A DNA stretch of 62,261 nt, the filler included. It is 4 parts of 4 records of this genome, joined end to end, with 100 filler letters (N's around TTAATTAATTAA, not from the genome) between each part and the next. Parts side by side here need not be neighbours in the genome. Positions count along the whole stretch, not along the records: positions 1 to 24,667 come from DRR378314_2105; 3 more parts are not named here. One strand, 5' to 3'. The translations under genes were made by a program, and so were the position numbers. The notes beneath the pieces are model-generated. The model did no database searches. It was not told where the DNA came from and saw only the letters and a program-made list of their open reading frames with translations. Each line of letters begins with the position of its first letter. The first letter of the stretch is position 1. This document shows, piece by piece, positions 3,953-12,483 of this stretch.

Positions 3953-4780
3953 TTAAAGCTGGGTGGCAGCTTTCATGCTAGCGACAAATTCTTTTAAGCC
4001 ATTGAGCATTGCTTGTGGCTCATCAAGATTTGTTTCAATTATTTTTACAACTGCTGAGCCTGATATAGCGCCAGCAGCCCCAGCTGCTAGTGCTGATTTA
4101 ACATCATCTGGTGTTGAAATGCCAAACCCAAGCAGTGCCGGCGCACTGTGGTATTCTTTGAGTTTGGTTACAATGGGTGATGCAGGCATTTGTGCTTTTG
4201 TCTCTGTGCCAGTTACACCAGCACGAGAAAGCAGGTATGTGTAGCCTCTACCGTAAGATGCGCACTGGCGTAAAGTGTCATCAGATGCGTTGGGTGTGGC
4301 AATAAAAATTGGGTCTATACCATTATTCACTGCGGCTTGGCGGAACATTTTAGATTCATGCAGAGGCACATCTGCAACTAAAATAGAATCAACCCCTGCG
4401 GCTTTGGCATCTTCATAGAATGCTTCTAATCCACGCTTAAATACCAAGTTAGAATACAATAATAAACCAATTGGAATATCTTGGTTGTACTCACGCACTT
4501 GTTTAATAATATCAAAACAGTCTTGTGTATTAATATTTACATCCAAAGCGCGGATGTTTGCCGCTTGTATAACTGGGCCATCTGCAATGGGGTCTGAAAA
4601 TGGAATGCCGAGCTCTAGGGCATCTGCCCCACCATCAATTAAACTTTTGATAATATCAACGCTTAATGATTTGTTTGGATCGCCAATAGTGACAAAAGGG
4701 ACAAACGCGCCTTGATTTTGTTCTTTTAAGGCCGCAAATGTTTGCCCATAACGGTCTGTTTTTTGATTAATTTGGCTCAT
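3953..4780 (-). CDS. trpA: Tryptophan synthase alpha chain
   Basis: [25 protein letters not shown]. Confidence 0.97.
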
Positions 4781-5961
4781 GAATTATCTCCTTTAGACAG
4801 TACATCCATAACGTGTGATAAGTCTTTATCACCTCGGCCACTTAAATTAACAACTAAGACAGTGTCTTCAGTTTGTTGTTCTGCGTACTTTAACGCGTAG
4901 GCAATCGCATGGCTTGATTCTAGGGCTGGAATAATCCCTTCATTTTTAGCTAATGATTGAAATGCTTCGAGCGCTTCTTCATCAGTAATGCCAACATATT
5001 GAGCACGGCCTGTTTCATGTAAAAAGGCATGCTGAGGACCTACAGCTGGGTAATCTAAGCCCGCTGAAACAGAATATGACTCTTCAATTTGACCATCATC
5101 ATTTTGCATTATGTACGTATAAGTACCATGCAAAATACCTTTGGTTCCTTTACAAATTGTTGCACCATGCTCATGGGTATCCAACCCTTTGCCTGCGGGT
5201 TCTACACCAATCAGTTTTACATCAGGTTCACCGATAAAGTCTGTGAACATGCCAATCGCATTTGAACCGCCACCCACACAGGCAAGCACAGCATCTGGTA
5301 AGCGACCTTCAGCTTTTAAAACTTGTTGTTTAGCTTCTTCGCCAATCATTTTTTGGAATTCACGTACAATTGTAGGGAAGGGATGAGGACCTGCAGCCGT
5401 TCCTAATAAGTAATGCGCTTCCTTATAGTTCGCAGACCAATCTCGCAGGGCTTCATTGACTGCATCTTTTAACGTACCAGAACCCGCAGTAACAGGGATC
5501 ACTTCAGCACCCATTAACTTCATTCTAAATACATTGGGTTGTTGGCGCTCTACATCTTTTGCACCCATGTAAATGCGACATTTTAAGCCAAGTAATGCAC
5601 AGGCTAATGCAGTTGCAACACCATGCTGGCCTGCGCCTGTTTCTGCGATAACCTCTTTTTTGCCCATTCGCTTTGTTAATAACGCTTGACCCAGTACTTG
5701 ATTGGTTTTGTGTGCGCCGCCATGTAATAAATCTTCGCGCTTTAAGTACAATTTTACTTTTGGGTTTTTAATTAAATTACGGGTTAATGTTAATGGTGTG
5801 GGGCGGCCTGCATACTCATTAAGTAACTTTTCAAACTCAGCTTTGAATGCCGCATCAGTTTGTGATTTATTAAATTCATTTTCTAACTGCTTAAGTGCAG
5901 GAACAAGGAGTTCAGGCACAAACATGCCGCCAAACTCGCCGAAATAAGCTGGATTATTCAT
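4777..5961 (-). CDS. trpB: Tryptophan synthase beta chain
   Basis: [18 protein letters not shown] lysine, [20 protein letters not shown] 5961 with GAGG RBS. Confidence 0.97.
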
Positions 5962-5968
5962 ATTTACC

Positions 5969-7333
5969 TCAATATTTGCGGATGCTGTTGAATGCATCAT
6001 TTAATTTTTGTTGGCACTTCTTGCCTGCGCTTAACTCAACCCCAGAATTTAAATCTAAGCCATGAGCACCTTGGTAAAGCGCGTTTTGAATATTGTCTGC
6101 GTTGAGCCCACCGGCTAGCATAAAGGGTTGCGTTGCTTCTTTTAAAACAGACCAATCAAATGTTTTACCCGTTCCACCCACTTGTTTGTCACTGTGTGTA
6201 TCATATAAGTGACGGTCAACGCCAATAACGTGAGCTGGAAGGCTGTCTTTGATAGCTTGCGCTTTCCATATTTGGCAATTAGACGGTAATTTTGAACGAA
6301 GCTCGTCTATATAGGCTTCATTTTCATCGCCGTGTAATTGCACTGCGGCTAACTTCAATGTGTTAGCATGTTCAGCGACCTCATTGATTGTTGAATTTAC
6401 AAATACCCCAACGTAAGCAAGTGGGGCGCTTTGCGTAATTTGCAATGCACAATCTAAATCTACGAAGCGCGGCGATTTCGTTGCAAAGATAAGCCCGCCA
6501 TATACGGCGCCGCTGTTGTAAGCATTTATGGCGTCTTGACTACGTGTTAAACCACATACTTTATTTTCGCCTAAAATAACCCGACGACACGCACGCTCTA
6601 GATCATGCTCAGCCATTAAAGAACTGCCAATTAAAAAACCGCTACACAATGGTGCTAGGCGTTTTACATCTTGATGGGTGTAGATGCCTGACTCTGAAAT
6701 GACTACTTTATTATTAGGAATAAGTTTACGCAGTCGTTCAGTTGTTGCTAAGTCAGTACTTAGATCACGTAAATCACGGTTATTTATGCCGATAATTTGT
6801 GCATCGAGCGCTAATGCCCTTGCTACTTCTTCTTCATTACTGACCTCAGTTAACACCGCCATTTTTAGGCTTTGAGCAACCTTAGCAAGTGATTTATATT
6901 GGTTGTCGTCAAGGACTGAAAGCATCAATAAAATAGCATCACCGCCATATATGCGTGCCATGTAGATCTGATATTCATCAATGAAGAAGTCTTTGCATAT
7001 TAGCGGCTGCTCAACTTGGCTTCGTACAAACTCTAAATAATCAAAGCTGCCTTGAAAATATTTTTCGTCAGTAAGCACGCTTATACAAGTTGCGTGTTTT
7101 TTATATACACTTGTTATTTCTGCTAAGTCAAAAGGCTCACGAATTAGCCCTTTCGAAGGTGATGCTTTTTTGCACTCTAAAATAAATTGAATTCCAGGCG
7201 CTGCTAATGCGCTATAAAAATCACGATTAGTTGGTATAGCTTGTGATTTAAAACTGTCGAGCGGTCGTTTGGCTTTACGCTCAGTGAGCTCTATTTTTTT
7301 ATCTGCAACAATTTTATCTAATACATTAGCCAT
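5969..7333 (-). CDS. trpCF: Bifunctional IGP synthase / PRA isomerase
   Basis: [10 protein letters not shown] and INNRDL, followed by NKVCGLTR and LAGGL. Confidence 0.96.
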
Positions 7334-8393
7334 TGGTTACCTCTGCATTTTCGGCTTTATTACTATGTTCAACAATGGCGTTTAACGTGTTCAAGGCCTG
7401 TCCTGATTTTAAAACATCACTGACATACTGTGCGCCAGCTTTTAGGCTTTCTACTTTCTCTGTCATGTAGAGCAATGCCGCAACATTCACAATTATTGCT
7501 GCATTGTGTGCGTCTGAGCCTGTGCCCGACAATATAGCAAGGCTAGCTTTTGCATTATATTCTGGGCCTTCACCAGCAAGTTGTTCAAGTGAGTAATTTG
7601 CAAGACCAAAATCTTCTGCTGTTAACGTATATTGCGTGAGCTCTCCATGGTTTAACTCAACAACAGTGGTTGTCCCATGTAATGCAATTTCATCCGTGCC
7701 CGCACCATGAACAACCATCGCCCGTTGTGTTCCTAATGTTTTCAGTGTTTTTGCCATTGGCAGACATAAACTTTCATCATAAACACCCAGTAACTGCACT
7801 TGCGGAGCAGCAGGGTTTGCTAATGGTCCTAAGATATTAAAAATAGTTCGCGTTTTTAATGTAGTACGAACGCCCATCGCATGGCGCACACCACTGTGAT
7901 AATGCGGGGCAAATAAAAATGTAAAGCCTGTTTGCTCAAGGCAGGCAACGGCTTGTGCTGGCCTCATATCAATATTAATGCCAAGTGCTTTGAGTAAATC
8001 CGCAGAGCCTGAATTACTCGATACGCTGCGGTTGCCATGTTTCACCATGTTTATACCACAGGCTGCGGCGACAATTGCGGCAGTGGTACTAATATTAATG
8101 GTGTTTGAGCCATCTCCACCGGTACCACAGCTATCTGCAAGCTGAGTTAATTGTGTTTTAAATTGCACTGCATTGGCACGCATTGATGCAGCAGCACCGG
8201 CTATCTCGTCGCTGACTTCGCCTTTGATTTTTAATGCAACTAGTAAAGCAGATAACTCAATCTCATTGACTTCGCCTTGCATGATTGCATTGAACAACTG
8301 TTTGCTTTGGCTAAAACTTAACGATGTTTGCGCGAGTAACTCATCAATAAGAGCACGGGTGTTATGTGTTGTTGGCTGTTGTTTTACTGACAT
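7326..8393 (-). CDS. trpD: Anthranilate phosphoribosyltransferase
   Basis: DSCGTGGDG, NIST, KHGNRSVSS. Confidence 0.96.
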   Translation of the reverse strand: MSVKQQPTTHNTRALIDELLAQTSLSFSQSKQLFNAIMQGEVNEIELSALLVALKIKGEVSDEIAGAAASMRANAVQFKTQLTQLADSCGTGGDGSNTINISTTAAIVAAACGINMVKHGNRSVSSNSGSADLLKALGINIDMRPAQAVACLEQTGFTFLFAPHYHSGVRHAMGVRTTLKTRTIFNILGPLANPAAPQVQLLGVYDESLCLPMAKTLKTLGTQRAMVVHGAGTDEIALHGTTTVVELNHGELTQYTLTAEDFGLANYSLEQLAGEGPEYNAKASLAILSGTGSDAHNAAIIVNVAALLYMTEKVESLKAGAQYVSDVLKSGQALNTLNAIVEHSNKAENAEVTNG

Positions 8394-8401
8394 AAAATCC
8401 T

Positions 8402-9019
8402 CTACTGCTTTGTGTTAGCTAAAAACTGCATACTTTGTTGCAGTAGTGCTGCGCCATTGGGCGTTAAAATAGACTCAGGGTGAAATTGATACCCAAGCGC
8501 ACTATCTTCCTTGTGAAAAATGGCCATCGGAATTGAACCGAAATTTGCTATCACGTCTAATGTGTCAGGTACGACGGTAGCCATGAGTGAGTGATAACGT
8601 GCTACGGGCATACGTTCACCCATTCCATCAAACACTGGGTGCTGCGCTAATTCAATAACTGAAGATTTGCCATGAACGGTTTCACCAGCGTGTCCAATTA
8701 CACCGCCATAACTCTGAGTTAACGCTTGTTGCCCCAGGCAAATACCTAACATCGGGAATTTACCTTTACACAGTTCAATTAAGGCCATTAAACAGCCCGC
8801 ATCAGATGGCGTCCCAGGGCCCGGCGACAAAACCAAAATAACGGGTTTGGTTTCATTACACATTTTGTTAAAAATGAGCGTAGCCTCTATGTTGTTACGA
8901 TATACCACTAAATCGCTGCCTAACATAGAAAGTTCATCGACTAAGTTATAACTAAATGAATCAAAGTTATCTAAAAAGTAAATTTTTACGCTTGAAAGGC
9001 TTATGTTACGTTCGCTCAT
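8402..9019 (-). CDS. trpG: Anthranilate synthase component II
   Basis: DNFDSFSYNL, SPGPG, GICLG, RYHSL, QFHPES. Confidence 0.95.
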   Translation of the reverse strand: MSERNISLSSVKIYFLDNFDSFSYNLVDELSMLGSDLVVYRNNIEATLIFNKMCNETKPVILVLSPGPGTPSDAGCLMALIELCKGKFPMLGICLGQQALTQSYGGVIGHAGETVHGKSSVIELAQHPVFDGMGERMPVARYHSLMATVVPDTLDVIANFGSIPMAIFHKEDSALGYQFHPESILTPNGAALLQQSMQFLANTKQ

Positions 9020-9024
9020 TTTTA

Positions 9025-10590
9025 TTATCCTTGGTAGGTCGATTGAATGGCTGTAATAACAGCTTGAGCCTTAGCGCGTGTTTCATTTGCCTCAGATTGC
9101 GGATCTGAATCGTGAACTACACCTGCGCCTGCTTGCACGTAAGCAATACTATTTTTTACAAAGGCTGAACGAATGACAATGCAGCTATCCATAGCACCGT
9201 CACCAGTTAAATAACCGACGGCACCGCCATAACTGCCTCTGCGCTTGCCTTCCGTTTTGCGAACGAGTTCAGCTGCACTGACTTTAGGCGCACCCACTAA
9301 TGTGCCCATATTCATGCAGGCTTGATAGGCATGTAGTGCATCAAGTTCAGGTTTTAATGTGCCTACAACACGAGAGACCAAGTGCATTACTTGTGAGTAG
9401 CGATCAACTTTTAAAAGCTCTTTAGCATGACGCGTACCGGGAACACTTATACGTGCTACGTCATTACGGGCCAAATCGACCAACATTAAATGCTCAGCTC
9501 GCTCTTTTTGGTCGTTCCGTAGTTCGAGTTCGATTCGGCTGTCGAGATCAGGGTTTATTTGCCCATTTGCAAATTTACCACGAGGTCGCGTGCCTGCAAT
9601 TGGGTAAACTTCTACTTGCTGACTGATAGGGCAAAACTTCAAAGCCGATTCAGGAGAAGCACCAAATAAGGCAAACTCACTGTCTCGCATATAAAACATA
9701 TAAGGGCTTGGGTTTTGCTGTTTTAGCTGGCTATAAGCATGAAGTGGCTGAGCACAAGGTAATGAAAAGGTACGCGAAGGCACGACTTGAAAGATGTCGC
9801 CATCAACAATATGTTTCTTTAAGTTGATTACTTGCTGACAATACATCTCGTCACTGATGTCTACACTCACTTCACTGTGACCGGCTGTTTTTTCGGCACT
9901 GAAATTACTTGCTTGGTCACATACTTTATTTAGACGCTCCAGTTTTTTACCTACCTCAAAGCAGTTCGCATGCACATCTGGGCCATTAAAAACATTACCT
10001 ATAAGCTCAGTTGTTTTAGCTTGATGGTCAATGACAACTAACGTTTCTGCCAAATAAAAAACATAATCGGGGCAACTATTCTCGCCGTCGGGTACAGCAG
10101 TGAGCTGTTCAAAATTTGCGACCATGTCATACGCAAACACGCCCCCTAAGAATAGCGAAAACGGGTTTTTTGTGGTGCTCTTGATATTGTTAATACAGTT
10201 TCTCAATGCACTAAATGCGTTATCAGCGACTAATTTACTGCCCTCATCAATATCTTTAGCAGTGCCTTCATATTCAATGGTTAATGTGTGTTCATTTAGA
10301 GTTGTTGCGCAATTTTGTAATGTGTCTCTCAGATAAGGTAATAGCTGCATCCCATTATTTGATTGCGCAGTAACAGTCACGATTTTACCTGTACATGTTA
10401 CTTTCAGCGCACAATCAACCAAGATTAAACTTTTAACACTATCTTTAGAGTCAATCTCAGCTGACTCTAGTAATAATGAATTATCTTTGTCTAGCAGTGC
10501 ATACAATGCTAGCGGACTATGAATGTATTCTCTGACTTCGGTGATACTTGTGACCTCACCCGGTGCTGTTGTTATATGACTAAAAATCAA
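9025..10590 (-). CDS. trpE: Anthranilate synthase component I (TTG start)
   Basis: LLESAE, NPSPYMF, PIAGTR, EHLMLVDLARND; GAGG RBS before TTG. Confidence 0.96.
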   Translation of the reverse strand: MIFSHITTAPGEVTSITEVREYIHSPLALYALLDKDNSLLLESAEIDSKDSVKSLILVDCALKVTCTGKIVTVTAQSNNGMQLLPYLRDTLQNCATTLNEHTLTIEYEGTAKDIDEGSKLVADNAFSALRNCINNIKSTTKNPFSLFLGGVFAYDMVANFEQLTAVPDGENSCPDYVFYLAETLVVIDHQAKTTELIGNVFNGPDVHANCFEVGKKLERLNKVCDQASNFSAEKTAGHSEVSVDISDEMYCQQVINLKKHIVDGDIFQVVPSRTFSLPCAQPLHAYSQLKQQNPSPYMFYMRDSEFALFGASPESALKFCPISQQVEVYPIAGTRPRGKFANGQINPDLDSRIELELRNDQKERAEHLMLVDLARNDVARISVPGTRHAKELLKVDRYSQVMHLVSRVVGTLKPELDALHAYQACMNMGTLVGAPKVSAAELVRKTEGKRRGSYGGAVGYLTGDGAMDSCIVIRSAFVKNSIAYVQAGAGVVHDSDPQSEANETRAKAQAVITAIQSTYQG

Positions 10591-10603
10591 ACCTCATTCC
10601 CTC

Positions 10604-10640
10604 AAAAAAATAAACCCCGCAAGCTATGCTGTGCGGGGTT
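10604..10640 (-). terminator. Attenuator terminator 2 (trpE-proximal)
   Basis: Minus strand AACCCCGCA-cagcatagct-TGCGGGGTT-TATTTTTTT, ending 13 nt before trpE. Confidence 0.88.
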
Positions 10641-10682
10641 AAATAACGACATCTATATTTTAGATAAACCATTACTGTCCCG

Positions 10683-10733
10683 CTAAGCCAGGCGCCACCA
10701 CCAATGATGTGTAAGAGTTAAATCGTTATTCAT
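10683..10733 (-). CDS. trpL: trp leader peptide 2 (MNNDLTLTHHWWWRLA)
   Basis: Hand translation; three tandem TGG codons; AGGGT RBS; followed by terminator 2. Confidence 0.88.
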   Translation of the reverse strand: MNNDLTLTHHWWWRLA

Positions 10734-10758
10734 GTTTGTTACCCTAAAATTTATGTAT

Positions 10759-10783
10759 AAAAAAACCCGCTATAAGCGGGTTT
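10759..10783 (-). terminator. Attenuator terminator 1 (promoter-proximal)
   Basis: Minus strand AAACCCGC-ttata-GCGGGTTT-TTTT. Confidence 0.88.
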
Positions 10784-10820
10784 AGAATGTGTTAGACACG
10801 ACAATTCGTCACCCGATAAT

Positions 10821-10865
10821 TTACGAGTGCCACCACCAGATTGTGTTTTGGATTGAATTGATCAT
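10821..10865 (-). CDS. trpL: trp leader peptide 1 (MINSIQNTIWWWHS)
   Basis: Hand translation; three tandem TGG codons; followed by terminator 1. Confidence 0.85.
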   Translation of the reverse strand: MINSIQNTIWWWHS

Positions 10866-11012
10866 TTTTGTTTCTTATTAAGTGTGTCTTTAGTGGCTAC
10901 AGTAAAGCGTACCTGTAGTATTTATGTCAAGTGTTTATTTAAAACAATTTATTAAAAAAATTTGTTATACTTCATAACAATTAAGCAATTATAACTTTAG
11001 TAGTCCTCTCTT

Positions 11013-11870
11013 TTGATAAAATACGATTTACATAGTCATACAACACATTCGGACGGACAATTGAGTGTTGAGCAACTGCTCCTTCGTGCAGTAGATAAAA
11101 ACATTGATGTTTTTGCCATTACTGATCATGACACGGTGGCTGCAATTGAACCTGCACAAACGTTTATTGAAAGCGAAAAATTACCTTTGATTTTAATTAC
11201 GGGTGTTGAAATTTCAACGAAGTGGGAAAGTTTTGAAATACATATTGTTGCGTTGAACGTCGATGTGAAAAATGAGGCTTTAAATTCGTTACTTTTGCTG
11301 CAGCAAAACAAGCGAGCAGAACGTGCAAAAGAGATTGGCAGGCGTCTTGAAAAAAACGGCTTCGATGGTATTTACGAGCAGGCAAAAGAGCTTGCACAAG
11401 ATGCACAAATTACCCGTGCCCATTATGCCAGAGCATTAATAGAGCGCGGTGTTGCTAAAACAATTCCGGGTGTATTTAAAAAGTATTTAGGCCGCGCAAA
11501 AACGGGTTACGTACCAAGTAAATGGTGCGATATGCAAACTGCAATTAGTGCAATTCATGCTGCTGGTGGTGTAGCGGTTATCGCGCACCCTGGGCGTTAT
11601 CAAATGTCTAATAAATGGCTGCGTAAATTATTACTACAATTTAAAGAAGCTGGTGGCGATGCAATGGAAGTTGCGCAACCACAACAGGCGCCAAGCGAGA
11701 GACAGTTTTTGGGTGAGTTAAGCCGTGAATATGGTTTATTATGCTCACAGGGTTCAGATTTTCATTTTCCTACCAGTTGGTTAGAATTAGGGAAAAACTT
11801 ATATTTGCCGAAAGATTGTCAAGGTGTTTGGCAACTTTGGGAAGGCAAACAAGGAGACACACATGAGTGA
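11013..11870 (+). CDS. yciV: PHP-domain protein YciV/TrpH (RNase AM-like)
   Basis: DLHSHTTHSDG, ITDHD, AHPGRY, GSDFH; divergent from trp as in other gammaproteobacteria. Confidence 0.9.
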   Translation: MIKYDLHSHTTHSDGQLSVEQLLLRAVDKNIDVFAITDHDTVAAIEPAQTFIESEKLPLILITGVEISTKWESFEIHIVALNVDVKNEALNSLLLLQQNKRAERAKEIGRRLEKNGFDGIYEQAKELAQDAQITRAHYARALIERGVAKTIPGVFKKYLGRAKTGYVPSKWCDMQTAISAIHAAGGVAVIAHPGRYQMSNKWLRKLLLQFKEAGGDAMEVAQPQQAPSERQFLGELSREYGLLCSQGSDFHFPTSWLELGKNLYLPKDCQGVWQLWEGKQGDTHE

Positions 11871-12483
11871 TTTTTTTCATATTCATCCAGATAACCCACA
11901 GCCACGATTGATAAAACAAGCGGTTGATATTATTAAAAAAGGTGGCGTTGTTGTCTATCCAACAGATTCTGGTTACGCAATCGGTTGTAATTTAGGAAAC
12001 AAACAAGCTAAAGAGCGTATTGAACGTATTCGTGGTATTGAAAAACACCATAACTTTACTTTGGTTTGTCGTGACTTATCTGAATTATCAACGTATGCCA
12101 GAGTTGATAACCAATTATTCAGGCTAATAAAAAACAACACGCCAGGGCCATACACGTTTATTTTTAAAGGTACAAAAGAAGTGCCTAAACGGTTATTAAA
12201 CGATAAGAAAAAAACCATCGGGATCCGTGTAATCGAACATCCAATTAGCTGTGCATTACTGGCTGAATTAGGTGAGCCTTTGATGTCGTGCTCACTGATT
12301 TTACCTGACGAACAATTTACAGAATCTGATCCTGATGAAATTCGTGATCGCATTGGCCCATTGGTTGATTTAATTATTCATGGTGGCTATTTAGCAGAGC
12401 AGGCGACAACAGTGATTGATTTATCAGAAGATGATGTTGAAGTGCTTCGAGTTGGGTGTGGTGACACAGCACCGTTTGAATAG
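11863..12483 (+). CDS. yciO: Sua5/YciO/YrdC family protein
   Basis: HPDNPQPRLI, YPTDSGYA, PGPYTFI; ATG 11863 with AGGAG RBS. Confidence 0.92.
   Translation: MSDFFHIHPDNPQPRLIKQAVDIIKKGGVVVYPTDSGYAIGCNLGNKQAKERIERIRGIEKHHNFTLVCRDLSELSTYARVDNQLFRLIKNNTPGPYTFIFKGTKEVPKRLLNDKKKTIGIRVIEHPISCALLAELGEPLMSCSLILPDEQFTESDPDEIRDRIGPLVDLIIHGGYLAEQATTVIDLSEDDVEVLRVGCGDTAPFE

Follow-up and report, generated by a model that had tools for sequence, protein, structure and literature searches.

Introduction

Attenuation by a leader peptide is a textbook mechanism, for which both teaching and annotation assume a single unit in each operon. Tandem T-boxes precede the trp operons of some Firmicutes. In one article (PMC9413887), double T-boxes are regarded as the probable outcome of recent duplication that might act cooperatively. 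A single attenuator is described as the norm for biosynthetic operons by Lee and Groisman 2012 (PMC3641672), where the mgtCBR leader is presented as a singular case with tandem attenuators that respond to different signals and where the metE leader, unlike the mgtCBR leader, is stated to carry two predicted intrinsic terminators. For Sinorhizobium, two articles describe a trans-acting sRNA and a leader peptide that are derived from the trp attenuator (PMC7298713, PMC7968998).

A full-text literature search found no paper on trp regulation in Pseudoalteromonas. Likewise, no description of a tandem trp leader-peptide attenuator was found in the full texts searched; supplementary material such as the lists that accompany Naville and Gautheret 2010 (PMC2965389) might bear on priority. 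Here we describe the region upstream of trpE in Pseudoalteromonas, in which one promoter probably drives a leader transcript of about 290 nt with two complete, ribosome-mediated Trp attenuators in series. Such a genus-wide serial design for one and the same signal, based on a mechanism that is itself familiar, is apparently undescribed.

Results

Organization of the trp locus

The window, i.e. the whole stretch of DNA that was analysed (62,261 nucleotides, filler included), contains a trp operon on the minus strand, which is flanked by two divergently oriented ORFs. Read from 5' to 3', the minus strand displays a putative promoter, leader ORF 1, terminator 1, leader ORF 2, terminator 2 and trpEGDC(F)BA. 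In the preliminary description the leaders, the pairing segments, the terminators and their order in front of trpE had all been placed correctly on this strand. The coding features are as follows.

3953..10590, minus strand: trp operon, trpE to trpA (ORFs and Pfam)
9025-10590, minus strand: trpE, 521-codon ORF with a TTG start at 10590 (Pfam)
8402-9019, minus strand: trpG (ORF and Pfam family)
7326-8393, minus strand: trpD (ORF and Pfam family)
5969-7333, minus strand: trpC-trpF fusion (ORF and Pfam family)
4777-6000, minus strand: trpB (ORF and Pfam family)
3953-4780, minus strand: trpA (ORF and Pfam family)
between terminator 2 and trpE, minus strand: trpE ribosome-binding site (read from the sequence)
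11013-11870, plus strand: PHP-domain ORF (Pfam), divergent from the trp promoter
11824-12483, plus strand: Sua5/YciO/YrdC-family ORF (Pfam), divergent from the trp promoter

The PHP-domain and YciO-family neighbours adjoin the trp locus of E. coli as well. A nine-base word of the TGG-TGG-TGG type, corresponding to three Trp codons, occurs four times in the 62-kb window against an expectation of 0.43, a count that none of 100 shuffles of the window reached. Two of the four words belong to leaders 1 and 2 and lie 135 nt apart. The Rfam family Trp_leader (RF00513) is the best Rfam match on unit 1 (32.4 bits, E 1.5e-4) and matches unit 2 too (20.4 bits, E 0.21). Since both scores lie below the gathering score of 41, the units are classed as working like the trpL type, outside the curated Rfam family.

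Unit 1

Unit 1 comprises a leader ORF with three adjacent Trp codons, three alternative pairings and an intrinsic terminator.

10865 to 10821, minus strand: leader ORF 1, MINSIQNTIWWWHS, from ATG to TAA, with three Trp codons at 10838-10830
10810..10829, minus strand: protector hairpin (1:2), CACTCG (10829-10824) with CGGGTG (10815-10810), the leader stop codon lying in the loop
10777..10815, minus strand: antiterminator (2:3), CGGGU (10815-10811) with ACCCG (10781-10777), enclosing a small hairpin
10759..10783, minus strand: terminator 1, 9-bp stem AAACCCGCU/AGCGGGUUU, 3-nt loop UAU and U7 (7 T in the DNA)

Across the genus, leader 1 keeps WWW followed by H/R/Y-S, and its N-terminal part is variable. 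A Shine-Dalgarno sequence is absent: the median duplex with the anti-Shine-Dalgarno sequence amounts to -0.7 kcal/mol at the genus loci, which resembles random positions (-0.6). The start codon is situated in an A-rich stretch (10865-10885 in the window; seen at the genus loci), about 20 nt from the predicted transcript start.

All six pairs of helix 1:2 (CACTCN with NGGGUG) can be formed in 42 of 48 distinct genus sequences, and the remaining six show one mismatch each. Among the fully paired sequences the closing pair is G-C in 35, U-A in four and A-U in three. This represents a compensatory change, in which the closing pair shifts together with a synonymous Ser codon; the closing-pair types arose in separate clades, and two distinct clades carry the U-A form. 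Terminator 1 is a stable hairpin (dG -14.7 kcal/mol, z -5.97), a stability matched by none of 200 shuffles. With the exception of the innermost pair, which covaries (UA 12, AU 12, GC 7), its stem is invariant in 48/48 genus sequences, and because of this invariance the rest of the stem tells nothing either way on covariation.

Unit 2

The second unit starts from a Shine-Dalgarno-like element and again ends in a hairpin followed by a T-run.

10741..10745, minus strand: Shine-Dalgarno-like AGGGT, 7 nt 5' of leader 2
10733 to 10683, minus strand: leader ORF 2, MNNDLTLTHHWWWRLA, from ATG to TAG, with three Trp codons at 10703-10695
10633..10683, minus strand: antiterminator, GCGGG (10683-10679) with CCCGC (10637-10633), GCGGG overlapping the stop codon
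10676-10642, minus strand: long internal hairpin, closed over by the antiterminator (from folding)
10604..10640, minus strand: terminator 2, stem AACCCCGCA/UGCGGGGUU enclosing a 3-bp helix and followed by UUUAUUUUUUU (from folding)

At the genus loci the starts of leader 2 show a moderate Shine-Dalgarno sequence, with a median duplex of -3.9 kcal/mol versus -0.6 at random positions. Genus variants of leader 2 carry WW, WGW or WWWW, and the tails read RL., CP, CL., FL or HS. Terminator 2 has a dG of -18.1 kcal/mol (z -5.27), and 0/200 shuffles were as stable. A simple terminator scan, which flagged terminator 1, passed over terminator 2 because its loop exceeds the 8-nt limit of the scan. A hairpin plus T-run is present in unit 2 of all 49 distinct genus sequences, the arms differing between lineages. 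Helix 1:2 of unit 2 is weak in the window, with 4 bp, and no covariation was obtained for it. Of the alternative pairings 1:2, 2:3 and 3:4 that follow from the preliminary description, unit 1 therefore possesses all, and unit 2 possesses the antiterminator and the terminator and has no convincing 1:2 hairpin.

Folding and ribosome position

Nascent-RNA folds were calculated for the RNA that exists before the 3' arm of the terminator has been made, with masking to 12 nt beyond the A-site codon as the assumed ribosome footprint. In unit 1, a ribosome stall at a Trp codon places the antiterminator in the minimum free energy (MFE) structure of 48/48 sequences; for a ribosome on the stop codon the count is 0/48. 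In unit 2 the corresponding counts are 49/49 at Trp codon 1 or 2, 46/49 at codon 3 and 10/49 at the stop codon. A coarser measure of the nascent folds points in the same direction for both units. In silico, the antiterminator is thus predicted to exclude the terminator depending on the position of the ribosome.

Equilibrium folds of the full-length RNA gave a different picture, as the terminator stays favoured whatever segment is masked: for a ribosome placed on Trp codon 1, P(terminator) lies above 0.5 in 35/48 unit 1 and 47/49 unit 2 sequences. Since the equilibrium folds do not switch, the model rests on kinetic, co-transcriptional folding. The result speaks against a purely thermodynamic switch and is expected for a kinetic one, as in the classical attenuator, the 3:4 hairpin of which is likewise more stable than 2:3.

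The antiterminator cores (GCGGG/CCCGC) never vary and therefore yield no covariation. When shuffled sequences were used to ask whether the terminator 3' arm is repeated next to the stop codon, the outcome was weak and not significant, with a median p of 0.08 in unit 1 and 0.25 in unit 2; p was at or below 0.05 in 21/48 unit 1 and 6/49 unit 2 sequences. RNAalifold on MAFFT alignments was of little use, and helices were tallied per sequence instead. In unit 1 it recovered the terminator, with 8 invariant pairs and 1 covarying pair, along with a spurious 4-bp helix, and missed helix 1:2, because the G-rich segment was misaligned; for unit 2 only 3 terminator pairs were kept.

Conservation within Pseudoalteromonas

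The nearest genome (G001) is identical to the window across the attenuator region, and all 21 exact matches to leader 1 in named genome records belong to Pseudoalteromonas. Conservation was followed at 64 genus loci that include the trpE start; one further locus (L061) was left out, since the trpE N-terminus is absent from it. Both Trp-rich leader ORFs are found at 62 of these 64 loci.

For a genome-wide count, a leader-1-specific word followed by a second Trp-Trp word within 50-230 nt was used as the pattern. It matches 130 of 140 species genomes of the genus, and a reversed control matches 0/140. Three of the genomes missed by the pattern are tandem as well: two have a different codon after WWW (G156, G142) and one has WGW in leader 2 (G006). 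Five others (G003, G020, G126, G150 and G057) carry leader 1, terminator 1 and a second terminator and have no leader 2. The last two are the incomplete genomes G137 (74% complete) and G144 (82% complete). Accordingly, of the 140 species genomes 133 carry the tandem and 5 have a single leader followed by two terminators, the other 2 being the incomplete ones, which bears out the proposal of two complete attenuators in tandem before trpE, now as separately conserved units. As the same two-unit layout recurs with diverged sequence in other genomes of the genus, the tandem is no artefact of assembly, as had also been argued in the preliminary description.

Among the loci compared, conservation of the tandem spans TrpE identities from 99% down to 67%. 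The Trp codons, the geometry from stop codon to G-rich segment, the antiterminator segments and the terminators stay constant across the genus; drift is seen in the N-terminal parts of the peptides, in the loops and in the inter-unit spacer (87-150 nt from the leader 1 stop to the leader 2 start).

In the clade with one leader (loci L018, L020, L122, L123 and L124), the second terminator follows terminator 1 after 6 nt, and its 5' arm complements the 3' arm of terminator 1. Stalling of the ribosome at the Trp codons yields 2:3 plus 4:5 pairing in the nascent folds of 3/3 loci. With the ribosome at the stop codon, terminator 1 forms and the arm of the second terminator is left free. By virtue of the linked 2:3 and 4:5 pairings, a single stall could disarm both terminators.

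In one genome of the genus, G087, the segment that runs from leader 1 to leader 2 is present twice without difference in sequence (C1:1414335-1414469 and C1:1415988-1416122), at a distance of 1.65 kb.

Putative promoter and transcript

A putative sigma-70 promoter is situated upstream of leader 1.

10901..10930, minus strand: putative sigma-70 promoter, TTGACA (10930-10925), 18-nt spacer, TTTACT (10906-10901) (from sequence and genus conservation)

At the genus loci compared, a TTGAC-N17/18-TTTACTGTAG block is kept 5' of leader 1, with a spacer that varies. The promoter escaped a simple scan, which accepts a second hexamer only if its position 2 is A.

At 10899-10920 of the window an inverted repeat, CTACAG N10 CTGTAG, extends over part of the promoter spacer and the -10 region. 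Other species of the genus do not retain this repeat, which is therefore probably no operator. No conserved palindromic or operator-like repeat was seen at the trp promoter across the genus loci compared, in agreement with the preliminary description, in which no TrpR-type operator was seen here.

Two complete sensor-plus-terminator units stand between one putative promoter and trpE. Only 26 nt separate the U-tract of terminator 1 from the ATG of leader 2 in the window, where the simple scan found no promoter-like site at its threshold between the units; no conserved -35/-10 block was seen in the inter-unit spacers of the genus loci listed. The two units would accordingly be transcribed as one RNA from the conserved upstream promoter. 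A contig from an RNA library (metatranscriptome, run X3) covers 10577-10831 without mismatch and bridges both terminators, which is a weak hint of a single transcript, as contigs show neither ends nor strand nor level and gaps in their coverage carry no meaning. Two short RNA contigs over 10802-10840, 5' of terminator 1, are deeper, a property from which, for contigs, level cannot be read.

TrpR and trpE leaders outside the genus

No trpR (PF01371) was found in five genomes of the genus, G001 and relatives, and above the Pfam cut-off TrpR was found in 0/131 genomes from 57 genera of the family. The same PF01371 search finds TrpR in 25/71 genomes of the order and in E. coli.

In 1-2 genomes of each of 55 other genera of the same family, 520-660 nt 5' of trpE were read, amounting to 58 loci; L151 and L156 were left out of this survey, as the TrpE N-terminus was unmatched. 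A single leader plus terminator is present in 33 of the 55 genera. Two leader ORFs, each with its own terminator, were found in three genera (g48, g38 and g68); in g48 the tandem is present at one locus (L034) and absent at another (L033), and at L038, from another genus, some 200 nt separate one unit from the other. In 11 genera no leader was found, and in two of these trpE is located directly 3' of another gene. At the latter loci (L054 in g51, L055 in g20) no leader or terminator lies between the two ORFs, and the preceding ORF has, judged by eye, the look of a DAHP/KDO8P synthase.

Because the relatives with a single attenuator (33/55 other genera) lack TrpR too, the distribution of TrpR loss does not match that of the tandem. 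The tandem is hence not simply a substitute for a lost repressor, and the proposal that it could replace TrpR repression is weakened, a reading that is not specifically supported by a repressor missing from the whole family, genera with a single attenuator included.

A further eight genera display a canonical attenuator followed by a conserved micro-ORF, without a second terminator. The micro-ORF (L056, L058, L128, L129, L135, L147, L152 and L154) is located about 35-60 nt 5' of trpE and consists of 18-20 codons that end in ..VK(S/T/R)WF(I/L)WWL(L/Q)P(I/L/K)YAG, with no terminator after it. Codons were compared at seven of the eight loci (the search motif did not match L128). Many positions show synonymous changes, and selection thus seems to act on the peptide itself; one guess is that the product is a nascent peptide with a regulatory role related to Trp.

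Across 18 other families of the order, 20 loci were read, and two complete units were found at none. At four of them (L103 in f25, L105 in f11, L109 and L121 in f27) a second short ORF with Trp-Arg-Trp (TGG-CGA-TGG) follows a canonical WWWH leader and terminator, and no second terminator was found after this ORF. In the genomes sampled from f25, f11 and f27, TrpR is absent.

The canonical leader of the family (...WWWH.P.) resembles leader 1 of Pseudoalteromonas, which identifies unit 2 as the added unit. In L026, L093, L097 and L099, the lineages whose TrpE is least identical to that of the window, leader 2 ends in ...IWWWHS., like leader 1, and at L026 the two units have an identical stretch of 30 nt in common. 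The alike tails and the shared stretch point to an origin by tandem duplication, or else to gene conversion from one unit to the other. Within a genome, the global identity of the two units (0.57-0.69) does not separate the lineages.

Discussion

The two units would subject RNA polymerase to two consecutive tests, both of which must be passed in order to reach trpE. In each unit, the short ORF with its three Trp codons would be translated while the polymerase advances. With an ample supply of charged tRNA-Trp, the ribosome would proceed to the stop codon and cover the adjacent G-rich segment, which in unit 1 might alternatively pair back with CACTCG. With the G-rich segment occupied, the 5' arm of the terminator would be free, and the hairpin plus U-tract would halt transcription. 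A ribosome stalled at the Trp codons, by contrast, would leave the G-rich segment free to pair with the 5' arm of the terminator before the 3' arm is made, resulting in read-through. Under this scheme two small probabilities would be multiplied to give the basal read-through, and full expression would need a stall in both leaders, giving a lower basal level and a steeper response than one unit. The sequences document the anatomy, its conservation, the covariation in unit 1 and the alternative folds that depend on ribosome position; that both ORFs are translated, that both terminators depend on Trp, that there is one transcript and that read-through is multiplied across the two gates is our inference.

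The same elements could be read as a device in which only one unit is a working Trp sensor and the other a decaying duplicate or a constitutive, leaky terminator that lowers expression. Leader 1 without a Shine-Dalgarno sequence, unit 2 without a clear 1:2 hairpin, the loss of leader 2 from five genomes of the genus and its reduction to WW or WGW in a few others would all be in line with such a reading. However, both ORFs keep their Trp codons and the stop-to-G-segment geometry in 133/140 genomes amid drifting sequence, and a dead copy would not persist in this manner at 67% TrpE identity. Where leader 2 has been lost, its terminator is linked to terminator 1 by base pairing, suggesting that an unregulated second terminator is not tolerated. 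A single working sensor is therefore considered unlikely. Chance co-occurrence of two Trp-rich mini-ORFs with hairpins, for which nothing speaks beyond the small size of the elements, has next to no probability: it is refuted by conservation, with the word-count and hairpin shuffles, the pattern matches in 130/140 genomes against 0/140 in the control and the compensatory changes all standing against it.

It is also conceivable that the units do not form one serial device, either because unit 2 has a promoter of its own or because the transcript ended at terminator 1, or its leader peptide, acts in trans. The latter has a precedent in Sinorhizobium, where the trp attenuator is reported to give rise to a trans-acting sRNA and a leader peptide (PMC7298713, PMC7968998). 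A separate promoter could be accommodated in the AT-rich inter-unit spacer, which reaches about 90 nt in some species, and the units of another genus (L038) are about 200 nt apart. Yet the spacer of the window has only 26 nt and lacks a promoter-like site at the scan threshold, the genus spacers listed contain no conserved -35/-10 block, and a role in trans would add to attenuation in cis rather than replace it. A non-serial arrangement of either kind thus appears improbable, and two Trp attenuators in series remain the preferred reading.

More tentatively, and with a good deal of doubt, the serial attenuators might represent a switch of wide range and steep response to Trp that has been selected genus-wide in a bacterium without TrpR. 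On this reading Alteromonadaceae might offer a natural evolutionary series, in which second Trp-rich upstream ORFs were invented several times. Its members would be the lone attenuator, the attenuator accompanied by a conserved Trp-rich micro-ORF, the pair of complete attenuators and the leader that relays to two terminators. A two-unit design that is conserved and serves one amino acid would mean that bacteria without a repressor could widen and sharpen control by RNA and ribosomes alone. Relatives with one unit and the clade with one leader and two linked terminators are natural controls, which make serial multiplication testable. Moreover, stacked attenuators could serve as a simple part for tight synthetic control.

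Among the known systems, the enterobacterial trpL leader (RF00513) resembles both units in its short ORF with neighbouring Trp codons, its stop codon beside segment 2, its mutually exclusive antiterminator and terminator pairings (2:3 and 3:4) and its intrinsic terminator before trpE; a 1:2 helix that excludes 2:3 is shared by unit 1. In contrast to trpL, Pseudoalteromonas possesses two complete units in series with three Trp codons each, TrpR was not found in its family, and the Rfam scores stay under the gathering score. The mgtCBR leader of Salmonella (PMC3641672) resembles the locus in having two short ORFs, each coupled to alternative stem-loops that control elongation into the operon; its ORFs sense ATP and proline, whereas the units of Pseudoalteromonas would both sense Trp, with a separate terminator for each. 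In double T-boxes and in tandem riboswitches, too, two complete sensor-plus-terminator units for one signal precede a biosynthetic or transport operon. They sense uncharged tRNA or a metabolite directly by RNA, however, whereas the sensor in Pseudoalteromonas would be the translating ribosome.
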